Shown here one piece after another: positions 20,798 through 44,469 of a DNA stretch of 64,000 nt. Position 1 is the first letter of the stretch; the number at the start of each line of letters is the position of its first letter. The notes under the pieces were generated by a model. It was not told where the DNA came from. It made no database searches and saw only the letters and a program-made list of their open reading frames with translations. The position numbers and the translations under genes are program-made. Source of the stretch: Eubacteriales bacterium (GTDB lineage: Bacteria > Bacillota > Clostridia > Oscillospirales > CAG-382); the NCBI GenBank assembly GCA_045600105.1, contig JAZRXG010000005.1, forward strand, positions 25,939 through 89,938, written 5' to 3'.

Positions 20798-23007
20798 GAT
20801 TTACCTCTTGCCACATCGCGCACGCCCTCGATCTTTTTGAGGGAGCGGATGATATTTTTAAGATGATCTATATTGCTGCATTTCAGAACGAGACGGATTA
20901 TGACGTCGTCGCCGTTTTCCCTGATGGAAAGCGAGTTGAGCGCCACCTTGAGATCGCTGAGCGACACGGTGATGTCCGCGACGATGCGCTGCGAATAAGC
21001 GGCGTACACGTTGACGCTCGCCTCGAAATCGCCGAATTCGCGTTTGCCGACGTCTTCCGCCCATGAAGCGACCACCCATCTGTCCTTATCTTCGGGATGT
21101 TTGAGTCCCGACGCGACGTTTTCGCAGTCGTATTTATGTATCGAAACGCCGTAGCCCTTGGTGATGAAGCCGATTATGCTGTCGCCCGGTACCGGATTGC
21201 AGCATTTTGCGAACTTGACCTCGCACCCCGACACGCTGTCGATGATGACCGACTGTGATTTGTCAGCCGACGGATGGCGTTCCGCCTTGTGCGCGAGCTT
21301 TTCCGCCGCCTTCTGCGCCGCTTCCTCGGGGGATACGGGGTTGACGACGCGGTCGAACTCGTCCTTGAACTTGGCGGAAAGCTTGCCGATGGCGATCCCG
21401 CCGTAGCCGATGTTGTTGTAAAGGTCGTCGGAGTCGGTCATCTTCATCCTCTCGGCGATGTTCTTTACTATCTCTTCCTTCTGCGCTTCGGTAAATGTCC
21501 TGCCGTAGCGTCTGAGCTCGCGGTCGACTTCGTATTTGCCGAGAAGGATGTTCTCGGACCTCATTTCTTTTTTGAAATACTGTCTTATCTTGTTGCGCGC
21601 TTCGCCCGAACGCACCATCTTGAGCCAGTCGCGGCTTGGTCCCTTCGAGGCGGACGACGTGAGTATCTCGACGATCTGTCCGTTCTGAAGCACGTAATCG
21701 ATGGGCACGATGCTGCCGTTGACCTTGGCGCCTATCATCGAGTTGCCGACCGCCGAATGGATGGCGTAGGCGAAGTCGATGGGGTTGGAGCCCGCGGGCA
21801 GCGACACTACGTCGCCGTTGGGCGTGAAAACGAAGGTCTCGTCGTCGAAAAAGTCTATCTTGAGCGGACGGAAGAATTCATCGGCGTCTTCGGGGTCTTT
21901 TTCGGTCTCGAGCAGGGTGCGTATCCATTTGAGCTTCTGATCTATCAGTTCTTTCGCCTGTTCGCCGCTCTTGTATTTCCAATGCGCGGCAAGGCCGTAT
22001 TCCGCGACCTCGTGCATTTCCTCGGTCCTTATCTGCACCTCGAACGGTATGCCGTCGTGACCGATGACGGTGGTGTGCAGCGAGCGGTACATATTCGCCT
22101 TCGGCGTTGAGATATAATCCTTGAATCTGCCGGGCATCGAGTTGAATTTTTCGTGTATGACGCCGAGCGTCGTATAGCACTCGAGCTCCGTGCTGACGAT
22201 TATCCTGATCGCGTAAAAGTCGTATATCTCGTCGAACGTCTTGTTCTGATTGAACATTTTGCGGTAAATGCTGTATATCGACTTGATTCGCCCTTCGAGG
22301 CGGTAATTTATGCCGAGCTCGTAAAGGCTGTCGCCGATGGTACGCTCCGCCTTCTGTATAAAGCTGTCGTTTGCCGAAAGGCGCGCCTGTATCGAACGGC
22401 TGATCTCGTCAAAGCCTATCGGGTCGAGATAATGGAGCGACAGGGTCTCGAGCTCCTGCTTTATCTTCTGGATACCGAGTCTGTGCGCGAGCGGCGCGTA
22501 GACGTGCATCGTTTCAAGCGCGACGGTACGCTGCTTTTCCTCGGAACGGTAGTTGAGCGTGCGCATATTGTGGAGTCTGTCCGCGAGCTTGATGAATATG
22601 ACGCGCAGGTCCTTCGACATGGCAAGGAACATCTTGCGCAGGTTTTCGATCGATTCGTCCTGCTTGGTCTCGAATCTGATCTCTTTCAGCTTGGTGACGC
22701 CGTCGACGAGCTCCGCGACCTCTTTGCCGAACTCTTTTTTGAGTATCTGTATGCTTGCGAGGTCACCGCAGTCCTCGACGGTATCGTGAAGGAGCGCCGC
22801 GCAGACCGAGTCGGTATCGAGCTGCAGGTCGGCGACTATCCCCGCGACCGCGATGGGATGGATTATGTAAGGCTCGCCCGAGCGGCGTTTCTGGTCGGCG
22901 TGGCACTTGTCGGCAAAGTCAAAGGCTTTTTTTATCTTGGCCAGATTATAGACCGCGGGCTTTTCGGAAAGCTGTTTATATAACGGTTCAAAAAGCTCCT
23001 CTGACAT
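20794..23007 (-). CDS. relA: Bifunctional (p)ppGpp synthetase/hydrolase RelA/SpoT (Rel)
   Basis: Track ORF trimmed to MSEELFEPLY (AAAGGAG RBS before 23007). HD domain (RSGEPYIIHPIAVA), synthetase, TGS and ACT regions are recognisable. Confidence 0.93.
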   Translation of the reverse strand: MSEELFEPLYKQLSEKPAVYNLAKIKKAFDFADKCHADQKRRSGEPYIIHPIAVAGIVADLQLDTDSVCAALLHDTVEDCGDLASIQILKKEFGKEVAELVDGVTKLKEIRFETKQDESIENLRKMFLAMSKDLRVIFIKLADRLHNMRTLNYRSEEKQRTVALETMHVYAPLAHRLGIQKIKQELETLSLHYLDPIGFDEISRSIQARLSANDSFIQKAERTIGDSLYELGINYRLEGRIKSIYSIYRKMFNQNKTFDEIYDFYAIRIIVSTELECYTTLGVIHEKFNSMPGRFKDYISTPKANMYRSLHTTVIGHDGIPFEVQIRTEEMHEVAEYGLAAHWKYKSGEQAKELIDQKLKWIRTLLETEKDPEDADEFFRPLKIDFFDDETFVFTPNGDVVSLPAGSNPIDFAYAIHSAVGNSMIGAKVNGSIVPIDYVLQNGQIVEILTSSASKGPSRDWLKMVRSGEARNKIRQYFKKEMRSENILLGKYEVDRELRRYGRTFTEAQKEEIVKNIAERMKMTDSDDLYNNIGYGGIAIGKLSAKFKDEFDRVVNPVSPEEAAQKAAEKLAHKAERHPSADKSQSVIIDSVSGCEVKFAKCCNPVPGDSIIGFITKGYGVSIHKYDCENVASGLKHPEDKDRWVVASWAEDVGKREFGDFEASVNVYAAYSQRIVADITVSLSDLKVALNSLSIRENGDDVIIRLVLKCSNIDHLKNIIRSLKKIEGVRDVARGKS

Positions 23008-23019
23008 TTTTACTCCTTT

Positions 23020-23205
23020 CGATATGGCGGTCGCAAAACAATGTTTTACGACCGTGTTACTCGCGCTTATCGCGCTTCGCTTCACTTCGTTTCGCTCGTT
23101 TGGTCGGCGCGAGGACGGGCTGAAAGCCCGTCTTGAAGGTGTTTTTGATTCGGCAAAGCCGAACCAAAAACGGATTTTTATTTATAAACGGATTTTATTT
23201 ATATA
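23020..23205 (-). repeat. Unclassified ~170-nt structured element, copy 1 (candidate leader RNA or REP-like repeat)
   Basis: About 80% identical to 43238..43410 when reverse-complemented, with four conserved hairpins and compensatory changes. It ends at the relA RBS. Confidence 0.7.
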
Positions 23206-23252
23206 TTGGTAAAACGGGGTTGAAACGAATTTTCGGCTTTTTATATATGCTG

Positions 23253-25343
23253 TCATTGTACGCGTTTTCTGACGCGTTTGAGTATCTCGCTGTTTTCGAG
23301 GTCGACCTTTGACGAATGCGGGAACAGCTTGATCTCGAGCAGATCGACGCCTCTGACGTGTATCGTGTCGGCAAGTCCGAACTCGGTCATGACGTCAAGC
23401 ACGGTCTTGATGGCGCAAAGGTCTATCTTGCGCTCCTCGACGGTCTCGAGACGGTGCATGAGATAGCGCACCGAAATGCGTTTTCTTTCGTCGCCGAGCT
23501 CGCGTTTGAGCGTGCGGAAGATCTCGCGGAAGTCGTTGATGGTGGGAACGCATCTGAACGGGATCGGTGAATCCGACTCCCTGTCGCATATCGATTCATA
23601 GACCGAACGCGAAAATTCTATTTCGTTCTTCTCGCTTTCGCAGGGACGTACCGCCTTGATGAGCAGCTGCGGATAAGTCATACCGCGGTATTCGTTGACG
23701 CCGAGCGTGCAGGCGATGTCGCACACGTTGCCGCGGCAGAACGGGAATTCGCAATGGCTCATGCCGAAATAAACGGCGTTTATCTCGCGCTTTCCGTTCG
23801 GGGCTTTTACGCGGAGTCTGATATGCTTGTCGCCCGATATCGAGGCGATCTCGCTTATGTACGCGTTGCGTATGATGAACTGCGGAACGGCGTTGGTAAG
23901 TCCGAACGGTTCGAGCATGAGTATCTCGGTCGCGTTTTCGGTGGTTATTTCGTCAAACATCAATTCGCAGTCGATCTCGACGGGCGGCAGGGTGTTTTTG
24001 TGCTCGAGCTGTTCTTTTGAAAGCTTTTCGAACCTTTCAATAAAATCGGGCAGGTTTTTGCGTTCAATCGAGAGTCCCGCTGCGAGCTCGTGTCCGCCGT
24101 ATTCGACGAGCAGGTCCTTGCAGCTGCCGAGAAGCTCGGTGAGGCTGAGCCCCTTGACGGAGCGTCCGCTTCCCTTGCCGAGGTCGCCGTCAAACGAGAA
24201 AAGTATGGCGGGCAGCGCGTATTTCTCGGAAATTTTGCTTGCCACCACCCCGATGACGCCCTGATGCCAGTCGTCCGAGCAGAGGATATAGCTGTATCTG
24301 TCACCGCGGAAAGCGCCTATCTGCTTGGTCGCTTCCTCGAAAATGAGCTGCTCGGTATTCTGACGTTTTTTGTTTATCTCGCAGAGCTCACGCGCGAGGT
24401 AATCCGCCCTGGCGTAGTCGGTCTCGAGCAGAAGGTCGAGCGATTTGCGTGCCGACGCGATGCGTCCGGCGGCGTTGAGACGCGGCGCGAGAACGTAGCC
24501 GACGGTGGAAGTATAAACCTTTTTTCTGCCGTTTTCGTCGGTGACGCCCGTGTTGTCCATGAGTGCCTGAAGTCCCACACGGTCGGTGGTCTCGAGCTTT
24601 TTAAGTCCTATATCGACGATAAGTCTGTTTTCGTCGCATATCGGCATGACGTCAGCGACCGTGCCTATGGCAACGAGGTCGGCGTATTCCGAAATTATCT
24701 TATCAACGTCGCCTTCGAGGGCGCAGATGAGCTTGAACACCACGCCGACTCCGGCGAGCTGCTTGAACGGATAACCGCAGTCCGGACGGTGCGGGTTGAC
24801 GACCGCGCAGGCGTCGGGCAGCTCGTCGCGGCAGTTATGGTGGTCGGTTACGACGACGTCAACGCCTATCGTTTTGGCAAAAGCTATTTCGTCGATGGCG
24901 GTGATGCCCGTGTCGACGGTGATTATGAGGTCGGTGTCCTTCGCGATCTCTTCGATGGACGCCTTATTGAGGCCGTAGCCTTCGGAAAGACGCTCGGGTA
25001 TGAAGCATCTGCATTTTGCTCCGACAGACGTGAGATAGAGATAGAGCGCGGTCGTCGAAGTGACGCCGTCAACGTCGTAGTCACCGTAAATACATATAGT
25101 CTGACCTTTTTCGACGGCTTCTCTTATCCTCGCGCACGCCTTGTCCATATCCTTGAGCAAAAACGGGTCTCCGAACGTGATGTCCGCCTTGTCAAGGAAA
25201 CGTTTTGCGCTTTCCGGGGTATCGTATCCTCTCGAAACAAGTATTCTCGCGGTAAGCCTGCCGATGCCGAGTGACAGCGCAAGCTGTTCCTCTTTTGATT
25301 TGTCAACCTGGGAAACGACCCAGTTCTCTGCCGGCATACGCAC
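23253..25343 (-). CDS. recJ: Single-stranded-DNA-specific exonuclease RecJ
   Basis: 696 aa, DHH motifs (DYDVDGVTS; DHH), DHHA1 GGHELAAG. Confidence 0.92.
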   Translation of the reverse strand: MRMPAENWVVSQVDKSKEEQLALSLGIGRLTARILVSRGYDTPESAKRFLDKADITFGDPFLLKDMDKACARIREAVEKGQTICIYGDYDVDGVTSTTALYLYLTSVGAKCRCFIPERLSEGYGLNKASIEEIAKDTDLIITVDTGITAIDEIAFAKTIGVDVVVTDHHNCRDELPDACAVVNPHRPDCGYPFKQLAGVGVVFKLICALEGDVDKIISEYADLVAIGTVADVMPICDENRLIVDIGLKKLETTDRVGLQALMDNTGVTDENGRKKVYTSTVGYVLAPRLNAAGRIASARKSLDLLLETDYARADYLARELCEINKKRQNTEQLIFEEATKQIGAFRGDRYSYILCSDDWHQGVIGVVASKISEKYALPAILFSFDGDLGKGSGRSVKGLSLTELLGSCKDLLVEYGGHELAAGLSIERKNLPDFIERFEKLSKEQLEHKNTLPPVEIDCELMFDEITTENATEILMLEPFGLTNAVPQFIIRNAYISEIASISGDKHIRLRVKAPNGKREINAVYFGMSHCEFPFCRGNVCDIACTLGVNEYRGMTYPQLLIKAVRPCESEKNEIEFSRSVYESICDRESDSPIPFRCVPTINDFREIFRTLKRELGDERKRISVRYLMHRLETVEERKIDLCAIKTVLDVMTEFGLADTIHVRGVDLLEIKLFPHSSKVDLENSEILKRVRKRVQ

Positions 25344-42175: not shown

Positions 42176-43210
42176 ATGGTGGAAGAAAAAACGTTGAAAA
42201 AAGATATATTGAATTATGTCAACTTCTCGCTTTGCGTGATGCTCTCGTTCGCCGGCAGTTATTTCACTCTGTCAAGGCTCGGCGAATGGCGGACGCTGTG
42301 CATCGTGATCGCTTTTGCCGTCGCGAACGCGTTCATAAAATCAAAATGGTATATCAAAGCCGCCTGTTTCGGCGTGTTCGGATATATTCTGCACTCGTTT
42401 TACGGCGAAGGCTTTGCCGAAAGTCTGACGTGCGCTCTGTTCTGCGCCGCTGTCATGCTCGTCTGCTGCGTCGCGGCGTTCCTTTGCAAAAAGAAAAAAG
42501 CGCTCGGCGTCATCATCGCGTTATGCTTGATTATGTCAACCGCCGTCGCTCACGTCGTTCTGTTCGGTTCGCCCGTTTCGGCATTTGAGGCAGACGAAAA
42601 ATTCGGCGCTTATCTTGCCTCCTCCTACGCCGAAGGAACGGTCGAAAGCACCGCCGTGCGCTTCGACAGAGCGTCGGGCTGCTTCGTCTGCGGCGTCAAC
42701 GCCGTGACCGAGCCGACCGAGGTCTTCACGCTGAGATACGAGAACGGAAGGATAGTCGACACGTTCGGACGTCATTTTGAGCTTTCGATGATGAAAAAAG
42801 GCAGGCTCGACGTGGTGAACGCTCTCCGCGCCGTTTATCCCGACGACGGATTTGCCGTCGAAAGCCACTCGATACAGGGCTTCCGCTTCATAAGGACCGA
42901 AAGCTCGGTCGGCGACGCTCCCACGGACGCAATGGTATTTGACGTTTATATTTCGGCGTACCTCACCGTCGACGATTTCATCGGTAAAGCCGTGTCGTAC
43001 ATGAGGACCCTGCTCGACGCCGGCGTAAACGTGAACAAGATAAACTTTTACGGCGGAAGAGCCGGTCTTTATTACCGCAGACTTACTCTTGACGGCGCGT
43101 ACCTTCCGTACGATACGACGGTGAACTTCGTTCCGCACTGCTTTGCGGACGCGCTTGCCGCGAGACTCGTGAAATACGGACTCCCCGGACTTGAAAAGCC
43201 GGAAAAATAA
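42176..43210 (+). CDS. Hypothetical membrane protein (N-terminal TM bundle plus soluble C-terminal domain)
   Basis: 344 aa. Start is 2 nt after the RNHCP stop. About 4-5 hydrophobic helices in the first 130 aa. No family recognised. Confidence 0.55.
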   Translation: MVEEKTLKKDILNYVNFSLCVMLSFAGSYFTLSRLGEWRTLCIVIAFAVANAFIKSKWYIKAACFGVFGYILHSFYGEGFAESLTCALFCAAVMLVCCVAAFLCKKKKALGVIIALCLIMSTAVAHVVLFGSPVSAFEADEKFGAYLASSYAEGTVESTAVRFDRASGCFVCGVNAVTEPTEVFTLRYENGRIVDTFGRHFELSMMKKGRLDVVNALRAVYPDDGFAVESHSIQGFRFIRTESSVGDAPTDAMVFDVYISAYLTVDDFIGKAVSYMRTLLDAGVNVNKINFYGGRAGLYYRRLTLDGAYLPYDTTVNFVPHCFADALAARLVKYGLPGLEKPEK

Positions 43211-43237
43211 ACAAAAATAAAAAAACAGTGATTGTAA

Positions 43238-43410
43238 AAATTCGGTTTTCGCGGGATTCGTTTTTGGGGCGGCTTTGCTGCCGCAAAAACACCTTTAAGA
43301 CGAGCGGAACGCTCGTCCTCGCACCGATCAAACGAGTGAAACGCAATGAAACGAGTGCGATAAGTGCGAGTGCCCAATTGTAAAACCGCGTTTTGCAATC
43401 GCAGAAAAAA
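43238..43410 (+). repeat. Unclassified ~170-nt structured element, copy 2
   Basis: Reverse-complement homologue of 23020..23205. It has the same orientation and spacing relative to the downstream start codon (ATG 43426). Confidence 0.7.
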
Positions 43411-43425
43411 GGAGTGTTTTATACT

Positions 43426-44469
43426 ATGGCAAAACTCAGAATCGGCGTCGTAGGCGCCGGAAACATCTCGCAGAACGCTCATCTGCCCGCTTACAAATCC
43501 GTCTGCAACGCGGAAGTCGTCGCGATCGCCGACATCAACATCGACCGCGCGAAGGAAGCCGCCGAAAAGTTCGGCATTCCCGCTTACTACGGCTCAGTTG
43601 AGGAACTGCTTGAAAAAGCGGACGTTGACGCGATCGACGTATGCACATGGAACTGCGGCCACGCGCCCGTAGCCATCGCCGCCGCCAACGCCGGAAAGCA
43701 CGTCATCTGCGAAAAGCCCATGACCGTATCCGTTGAAAAAGCGCTCGAGATCAAAGAAGCCGTCGACAAGGCAGGCGTAAGATTCATGCTCGCCGTCCCC
43801 GGCAGATTCGGCAACGAAAACATCTATCTCCATGATATGCTTGAAAAAGGCGAGCTCGGAGAAGTCTATTTTGCCAAGACCGCGTACGTAAGACGCCGCG
43901 GCACTCCCTCCGGCTGGTTCACCGACCTCAAGACCGCGGGCGGCGGCCCCGTTATCGACATCGGCATCCACGGCATCGACGCCGCGTGGTATCTGATGGG
44001 CTGCCCGAAGCCCGTCCGCGTTTCCGCCGCGACCTACGGCTACATCGGCGATTATCAGACCAAGGGCGTTGACCGCTGGAAAGGCACGCCGTCGCCCGAC
44101 AATCAGTTCGACACCGAAGATTCCGGCAACGGCATCATCCATTTCGAAAACGGCGCGTCTCTCATTTTTGAAGCAAGCTGGGCGATCAACGGACCGTCCA
44201 ATTCCTCCACCCAGATATTCGGCAGTAAAGCAGGAGCGAGCCTTTCTCCGCTCGTCATTTACGGCGAGAGAGACGGCTATCTTTCCGACGATACCATAAC
44301 GATGGGTCAGCCCGCCAACAAGTTCGCGCGTGAGCTCACTCATTTCGCCGACTGCATACTCAACGACAAGCCCTTCAAATATCCCATTGAGCAGGCGATC
44401 CAGATGCAGAAGATGCTCAACGCCATCTACGAATCCGCAGCCACCCACAAGGAAATCGTCATCGACTGA
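43426..44469 (+). CDS. Gfo/Idh/MocA-family NAD(P)-dependent oxidoreductase
   Basis: Track ORF trimmed to MAKLRIGVVGAGNIS (AAAGGAG RBS). N-terminal Rossmann fold, EKP motif. Confidence 0.85.
   Translation: MAKLRIGVVGAGNISQNAHLPAYKSVCNAEVVAIADINIDRAKEAAEKFGIPAYYGSVEELLEKADVDAIDVCTWNCGHAPVAIAAANAGKHVICEKPMTVSVEKALEIKEAVDKAGVRFMLAVPGRFGNENIYLHDMLEKGELGEVYFAKTAYVRRRGTPSGWFTDLKTAGGGPVIDIGIHGIDAAWYLMGCPKPVRVSAATYGYIGDYQTKGVDRWKGTPSPDNQFDTEDSGNGIIHFENGASLIFEASWAINGPSNSSTQIFGSKAGASLSPLVIYGERDGYLSDDTITMGQPANKFARELTHFADCILNDKPFKYPIEQAIQMQKMLNAIYESAATHKEIVID

Follow-up and report, generated by a model that had tools for sequence, protein, structure and literature searches.

The window analysed here is a 64-kb stretch of DNA from a Eubacteriales bacterium, and it holds two related segments, each placed between same-strand genes and each stopping 12-20 nt short of the SD of the downstream gene. 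Copy 1, on the minus strand, measures ~228 nt as a whole element (23025..23252) and fills nearly all of the spacer between recJ (Pfam DHH, DHHA1 and RecJ_OB) and relA (relA/spoT by Pfam). It begins directly after the recJ stop codon (23253-23255, minus strand); the relA SD, GAAAGGAG (23013-23020, minus strand), lies 5 nt beyond its end, and the relA ATG is at 23007. Copy 2, on the plus strand, is ~180 nt long (43226..43405), with a gene that is YfjL_N-like by Pfam (stop at 43210) on one side and, on the other, the SD (43409-43414, plus strand) and ATG (43426) of a gene that Pfam assigns to the Gfo/Idh/MocA oxidoreductases.

By blastn, copy 1 (23027-23172, minus strand) and copy 2 (43259-43402, plus strand) are 76.7% identical over 146 nt (E 4e-25). 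An nhmmer profile built from the pair found exactly two copies in the 64-kb window, and a covariance model run with filters off found no third there. An earlier note on this DNA had described two look-alikes of ~170 nt, ~80% identical, lying in the same orientation just before a downstream RBS and 3' of a same-strand gene; sequences, coordinates and placement are as it described. The extents it gave (23020-23205 and 43238-43410) fall short of the full unit. The element ends in inverted repeats, and the real units are therefore longer than those coordinates, at ~23025-23252 and 43226-43405, with the host SD just outside each; they reach further 5' than first given, to a terminal repeat ~30-80 nt upstream of hairpin A. 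The ends of copy 1 were placed by homology to two copies from other genomes (L008 and L023, below) that are bounded by target duplications.

Rfam 15, searched over the whole window, gave no match at gathering thresholds, in keeping with the initial impression that the segments resemble no RNA family; matches at E<=10 around both loci were noise, the best being rli22 at 22.7 bits against a threshold of 80. A terminator scan found no intrinsic-terminator-like site at either locus, and a promoter scan found nothing beyond weak promoter-like sites, all of them within the upstream genes. Across copies no frame stays open consistently, and the indels between them are not multiples of 3. The sole RNA run, metatranscriptome X22, is too sparse and leaves the element without coverage.

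Gene order upstream of the Gfo/Idh/MocA gene (window 42176-43425) differs from that in related loci (L028-L030 and L033-L035). The YfjL_N-like gene directly precedes the oxidoreductase gene in the window, whereas in the relatives one to three other genes lie in between, including, in L028 and L029, one for a protein of 2092-2403 aa. The place of copy 2 is therefore a junction left by a rearrangement or a deletion.

Four hairpins with compensatory changes

Each copy carries four hairpins, A to D. Hairpin A (23141..23171 on the minus strand in copy 1; 43260..43290 on the plus strand in copy 2, from folding and covariation) has, in copy 1, a 14-bp stem closed by a TTT loop, with four pairs of this helix changed on both sides among the copies; stem position 8 is a G-U pair in copy 1 and is weak or mismatched in most copies. 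Stem B, the second helix, is GACGGGC/GCCCGTC in copy 1 (23114..23132, minus strand) and, by covariation, GACGAGC/GCTCGTC in copy 2 (43299..43317, plus strand). Stem C (23060..23113, minus strand; 43318..43370, plus strand) has a 7-bp closing helix, CTCGCGC/GCGCGAG in copy 1 (23060-23066 with 23107-23113) and CTCGCAC/GTGCGAG in copy 2 (43318-43324 with 43364-43370), around a purine-rich interior of variable length that is shorter in L008 and L023. This closing helix, the third in our count, is 100% paired across copies, with one pair changed from G-C to A-U.

Hairpin D differs in kind, as it is made of the element's own end: a second, inner copy of the terminal repeat, in direct orientation, pairs with the right terminal repeat, and the left arm holds a weaker mirror arrangement. 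In copy 1 (23025..23053, minus strand) the hairpin spans 23029-23053, and its 3' arm plus 4 nt constitutes the right terminal repeat; in copy 2 (43375..43405, plus strand) the hairpin spans 43375-43401, comprising the inner direct copy and the right terminal repeat at 43390-43405. Both sides have changed in 7 of the 12 pairs of this fourth helix. The folding energies are -69.4 kcal/mol for copy 1 (z -6.7 against shuffles) and -63.7 kcal/mol for copy 2 (z -3.8). All of the stems that had been picked out by eye, A, B, C and a small 3' hairpin, are thus present in both copies where they had been placed.

For covariation we aligned seven copies, the two of the window and five from other genomes. 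RNAalifold recovered hairpins A, B, C (closing helix) and D, with compensatory changes at 15 pairs. On a fixed four-helix structure, 95% of 280 cells are paired and both sides have changed in 14 of 40 pairs; the covariation score is 0.302, against 0.137 +/- 0.020 for shuffles, none of 500 of which scored as high, and sliding the partners by 1-3 columns lowered pairing to 36-43%. The earlier proposal that selection acts on structure is borne out by these counts. Mobile repeats such as bcr1 also keep their hairpins by compensation, however, so covariation alone is no sign of a regulatory RNA.

Four inner stem C pairs offered by RNAalifold (78:105, 79:104, 82:100 and 83:99) had poor support and were omitted from the model. 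In three of the copies (L021:1500-1520, L022:2135-2155 and L023:5600-5620) the two middle pairs of stem B are tandem G-A/A-G rather than Watson-Crick pairs, which may mark a subfamily or serve as a motif for specific recognition. G-T pairs outnumber A-C by 9 to 3 on the aligned strand, a weak hint of a strand-specific single-stranded or RNA role.

Empty sites, dispersed copies and target duplications

Related genomes lack the element at both positions. Three proteins of the window, looked up directly, had no record of their own, and homology searches led to the orthologues. In the window recJ and relA are separated by 245 nt, versus 29 (L024), 39 (L025 and L026), 4 (L036) and 17 nt (L037) in five relatives whose RelA is 76-83% identical, and all five share with the window the gene order smc-ftsY-ham1-cdaA-ybbR-recJ-relA-dtd-radical SAM. 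Upstream of Gfo/Idh/MocA orthologues (75-77% identical) the spacer measures 13 or 25 nt, or else 272 nt of unrelated sequence, and the element is absent at the eight loci examined; neither nhmmer nor the covariance model found it in ~190 kb of relatives' DNA. Closer to the window, contigs of sister strains in the gut-metagenome runs X2 and X3, with flanks ~90-95% identical to it, join 43222/3 to 43422 through 45 unrelated letters and lack copy 2, which is present in the strain nearest to the window, that of X1 (with 2 differences over 430 nt). The short spacers of the relatives and the empty site of X2 and X3 therefore mark a lineage-specific, still polymorphic insertion, not a conserved 5' UTR.

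At recJ-relA the element itself varies between strains. A conspecific contig reached via RelA (L027; RelA protein 100% identical, relA DNA 95.8%) carries at the same site (L027:1600-1893) a tandem duplication of C and D, giving the order A-B-C-D-C'-D', as does an X2 contig matching window 23058-23119; the hairpin D sequence of L027 is different (CCAAATGAAAAACGCAGTTTTTCATTTG). The left arm of copy 1 (23172-23236, minus strand) is AT-rich and strain-variable; in it lie an inner copy of the terminal repeat in inverted orientation, GTTTTACCAAT, and, in the window, a 15-nt stretch, ATAAATAAAATCCGTTT, that occurs twice; in strains from runs X2 and X4 the 67 nt at 23179-23245 are swapped for 24 other letters (ATTTATAATACGGATTTTTCCTTG). 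These sequences indicate that the element is modular and evolves via gain and loss of modules.

Further copies are dispersed among other genomes. An exact-pattern scan of 185,579 species genomes, one per species, returned 20 stretches, about the chance expectation, with one true relative, L008, from a Clostridia MAG; a second pattern, run on 241 M metagenome records, yielded three, L021, L022 and L023. With 1 + 3 true matches from these scans, genome-wide copy number rests on contig depth, not on counted loci. In four gut metagenomes the contig depth of the core relative to its flanks is 3-5x at copy 1 and up to ~10x at copy 2, and many contigs match the core and then diverge into unrelated, varied flanks, so these communities hold many more copies. 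No copy was found in viral contigs, phages or plasmids.

The insertions face either way. In L008 the element is antisense to both neighbours, an arginase-family speB and a saccharopine-dehydrogenase-family gene (Arginase and Sacchrp_dh); in L021 it is antisense to ssb and rpsR (SSB and S18), within an rpsF-ssb-rpsR operon; in L022 it is antisense to two amine-oxidase genes; and in L023 it lies within an IS30-family transposase gene. Counting independent insertions, three are sense (copy 1 with L027, copy 2 and L023) and three antisense (L008, L021 and L022). Random orientation to genes is what the earlier note had named as speaking against a leader.

Terminal inverted repeats of ~16 bp, with the consensus (C/T)AGGCGATTGTAAAAC, bound the element, most legibly in two of the foreign copies. 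The 173-bp element of L023 has ends, CAGGCGATTGTAAAAC and TAGTCGATTGTAAAAC, that match at 14 of 16 positions, and it is flanked on each side by a perfect 13-bp direct repeat, ACATCCGTTTTCT. The 180-bp element of L008, at the speB stop codon, has ends that likewise match each other at 14/16, and on both sides of it stands a perfect 13-bp repeat of another sequence, TAATGTTTCAATA. The repeats are not the same in the two genomes, which identifies them as target duplications rather than a recombination core; their length is 11-13 bp, depending on how the L008 junction is read. Removing the L023 element together with one repeat reopens the IS30 frame into its C-terminal motif (...FTHPFSSWEKGTNE...LPRKILGYHTPEELF), and the product scores 124.5 bits to the NCBIfam IS30 model (NF033563).

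The ends of the window copies are more worn. The left terminal repeat of copy 2, CAGTGATTGTAAAAA (43226..43240, plus strand), matches the reverse complement of its right end (CTGCGATTGCAAAAC) at 11/15, and that of copy 1, CAGCATATATAAAAAG (23237..23252, minus strand), is degenerate, at 10/16 to CAGGCGATTGTAAAAG. We found no convincing target duplication at copy 1, copy 2, L021 or L022, which leaves readable duplications at two of the six independent insertions; the flanks of copy 2 share only an A-run, and those of L022 only a weak ATCAGA match.

Two of the host sites have features of their own. At L008:1687-1700 the insertion changes the end of the predicted speB product from ...ALLKH to ...ALLKHYRQL and moves the RBS of the next gene 193 nt away. 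The IS30-family gene invaded in L023 (L023:5525-6238, minus strand) is itself a deletion derivative, in which the N-terminal HTH part is followed by the C-terminal motif and most of the catalytic core is missing.

Nature of the repeat

We conclude that both segments are very probably copies of a non-autonomous, non-coding, MITE-like repeat of ~175-230 bp, found in uncultured gut Clostridia/Eubacteriales. Prokaryotic MITEs are shorter than 500 bp, carry TIRs of 4-30 bp and direct repeats that fade with time, and give rise to transcripts with stable stem-loops (PMC10969869). The repeat described here is likewise short (units of 173-228 bp) and non-coding, with TIRs, target duplications that differ between insertions, dispersed copies, and sites both filled and empty. 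It is a new family of structured, modular MITE, and the two copies in the window landed before relA and the dehydrogenase gene by chance.

The repeat behaves most closely like Bacillus bcr1 and pneumococcal BOX/RUP. The bcr1 repeats (Group A bcr repeats of the Bacillus cereus group) are interspersed repeats of a Firmicute, ~155 bp long, whose distribution varies between close strains; they have direct repeats at their flanks and a multi-stem structure kept by compensatory changes, so that such changes are known from within a mobile repeat (PMC3184786). We saw no sequence relationship between the two families, and they differ further in that bcr1 has 5-bp direct repeats as opposed to 11-13 bp here, in the clear ~16-bp TIRs and four hairpins that belong to the present element, and in that transcription has been demonstrated for bcr1, whereas the present element is known from DNA sequence. 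BOX of Streptococcus pneumoniae is also intergenic and structured, with a variable number of internal modules, comparable to the doubling of C-D in L027 and X2; its sequence is unrelated, and it forms MITE-like arrays without a TIR or target-duplication signature (PMC3184786). Correia/NEMIS, RUP, ERIC and MITEAba12 are again small, non-coding and multi-copy, with TIRs and target duplications; they lie mostly in intergenic regions, often immediately before a gene, and stable stem-loops form in their transcripts (PMC10969869). Classical MITEs, in contrast, duplicate TA or 2-10 bp (PMC11602168) and fold as one long TIR-TIR hairpin, where the present element has a 13-bp duplication and four independent covarying hairpins.

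We suggest the following course of events. The element consists of a ~16-bp TIR, a variable AT-rich left arm, hairpins A, B and C, and the terminal palindrome D. We infer that a DDE-type transposase encoded elsewhere would bind the terminal repeats and excise or copy the element in trans; integration would take place at staggered cuts 11-13 bp apart, with a preference for AT-rich spacers by stop codons and ribosome-binding sites, and would leave a target duplication of 11-13 bp, which fades as the insertion ages. The two copies in the window would then be old insertions whose duplications have eroded past reading, copy 1 older than the split of strains ~95% identical in DNA and copy 2 still polymorphic. 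The hairpins would have been kept, in the reading that we prefer, because only hairpin-forming copies propagate or are tolerated; they may act as protein-binding or single-strand DNA structures in transposition, as stable stem-loops in read-through RNA, or as both. For the two downstream genes, relA and the dehydrogenase gene, the element probably amounts to no more than a long, structured insertion into an operon spacer, without a terminator, and would affect mRNA stability or translation incidentally, if at all. Copy 1 has no terminator, so co-transcription of recJ and relA probably continues.

Several observations sit less easily with a MITE. The host-genome fragments searched contain no autonomous element or transposase with these repeats: in the window and 37 loci no transposase or IS is bounded by them, the motif occurs only inside the elements, and no cognate IS was identified. 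A readable target duplication accompanies only two insertions of six, the left terminal repeat of copy 1 is degenerate, and the 13-bp duplication exceeds the 2-10 bp usual for MITEs (PMC11602168). Strong covariation of internal hairpins is left unexplained by simple double-stranded cut-and-paste, and the 9 to 3 excess of G-T over A-C on the aligned strand hints at a strand-specific single-stranded or RNA role. The exact-pattern scans also gave just 1 + 3 true matches, the copy number coming from depth.

The four covarying internal hairpins and the doubled terminal palindromes leave a small share of the probability to a new kind of structured mobile cassette, either one with a folded single-stranded intermediate and an undescribed transposase that duplicates 13 bp, or a portable RNA module kept in operon spacers such as that of recJ-relA. 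In another reading, which we hold to be quite unlikely, the conserved four-hairpin core of a mobile element would itself function as an RNA module, such as a cassette for mRNA stabilisation or processing or a small RNA, which transposition has spread and the host has retained for this function. Covariation of internal hairpins is unexpected in passenger DNA, the G-U excess falls on one strand, copy 1 has been retained through the whole divergence of the ~95% identical strains, and bcr1, BOX, ERIC and Correia provide precedents (PMC3184786, PMC10969869). A module working as RNA is hard to reconcile, however, with three sense and three antisense copies relative to transcription, as the complement strand would lose the G-U pairs; the only RNA run, lacking coverage of the element, offers no evidence of transcription, and copy 2 is dispensable in the sister strains.

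Both window copies are sense and end just before an RBS, and their stems covary, which had suggested in the earlier note a leader or riboswitch-like element. It is nevertheless very improbable that relA and the Gfo/Idh/MocA gene are controlled in cis by a leader RNA or riboswitch whose multi-stem fold would sense a signal and whose CACCUU after hairpin A would sequester the SD. The element is missing at the same position in the five relA and eight Gfo/Idh/MocA orthologous loci and, for copy 2, in sister strains, and elsewhere it runs opposite to its neighbours in three genomes and, in one more, interrupts a transposase gene; there is neither a terminator nor an Rfam match. We found none of the three marks of a riboswitch, namely a conserved position, a fixed sense orientation and a conserved expression platform. 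Of the alternative that the same note had offered, a structured mobile repeat that carries a 5' UTR, the mobile repeat stands and the 5' UTR does not, because the RBS is that of the host gene and the element therefore carries none.

The candidate anti-SD pairing was rejected as well: of the two MFE folds, that of copy 2 joins CCUUU to the AAAGG of the SD and that of copy 1 does not, CACCUU is not conserved in L021-L023, and such pairing is meaningless in antisense copies.

Scarcely probable, finally, is an element of the REP/RAYT or IS200/IS605 (PATE) type that would move as single-stranded DNA, its subterminal hairpins being recognised by a Y1 (HUH) transposase. The imperfect palindromes that lie at the two ends or close to them, the conserved weak position in hairpin A and the strand-asymmetric hairpin content recall such elements, but Y1-transposase elements make no target duplication and have no TIRs, whereas two insertions here have different perfect 13-bp duplications and TIRs matching at 14/16, and the unit of 173-228 bp is far above the 20-40 nt of a REP and is missing the GTAG/CGTC tag (PMC3733652).

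The MITE reading leads to the question of which transposase moves the repeat, and the repeat is reasonably suited to such a search in view of its unusually long 13-bp duplication and the selection on its internal hairpins. The element starts with CAGG, which we take to be reminiscent of the ends of ISAs1, a candidate likeness. IS4 itself makes target duplications of 11-13 bp. The IS4 family may be considered as the source of the mobilising transposase, as a lead only; neither an IS4-like transposase nor a matching terminal repeat was found in the sequence searched, and members of this family make target duplications of ~10 bp, one helical turn (PMC2266710).

Covariation screens for riboswitches in metagenomic intergenic regions will flag repeats of this kind, and the present pair is a worked example of a covariation-rich false positive, in which checks of empty sites, orientation and target duplications tell a mobile structured repeat from a leader. 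For relA, the insertion has placed a very stable structured spacer of ~230 nt right before a stringent-response gene, which could alter relA expression, in one species only. The family is also a marker of strain variation in uncultured gut Clostridia, by presence or absence at the Gfo/Idh/MocA gene and by module duplication at recJ-relA.

Inside the Gfo/Idh/MocA gene, a stretch of 37 nt (window 43688-43724) also shows raised contig depth, 5-10x, with many different flanks; it is probably a motif common to many paralogous or orthologous dehydrogenase genes and no repeat element.
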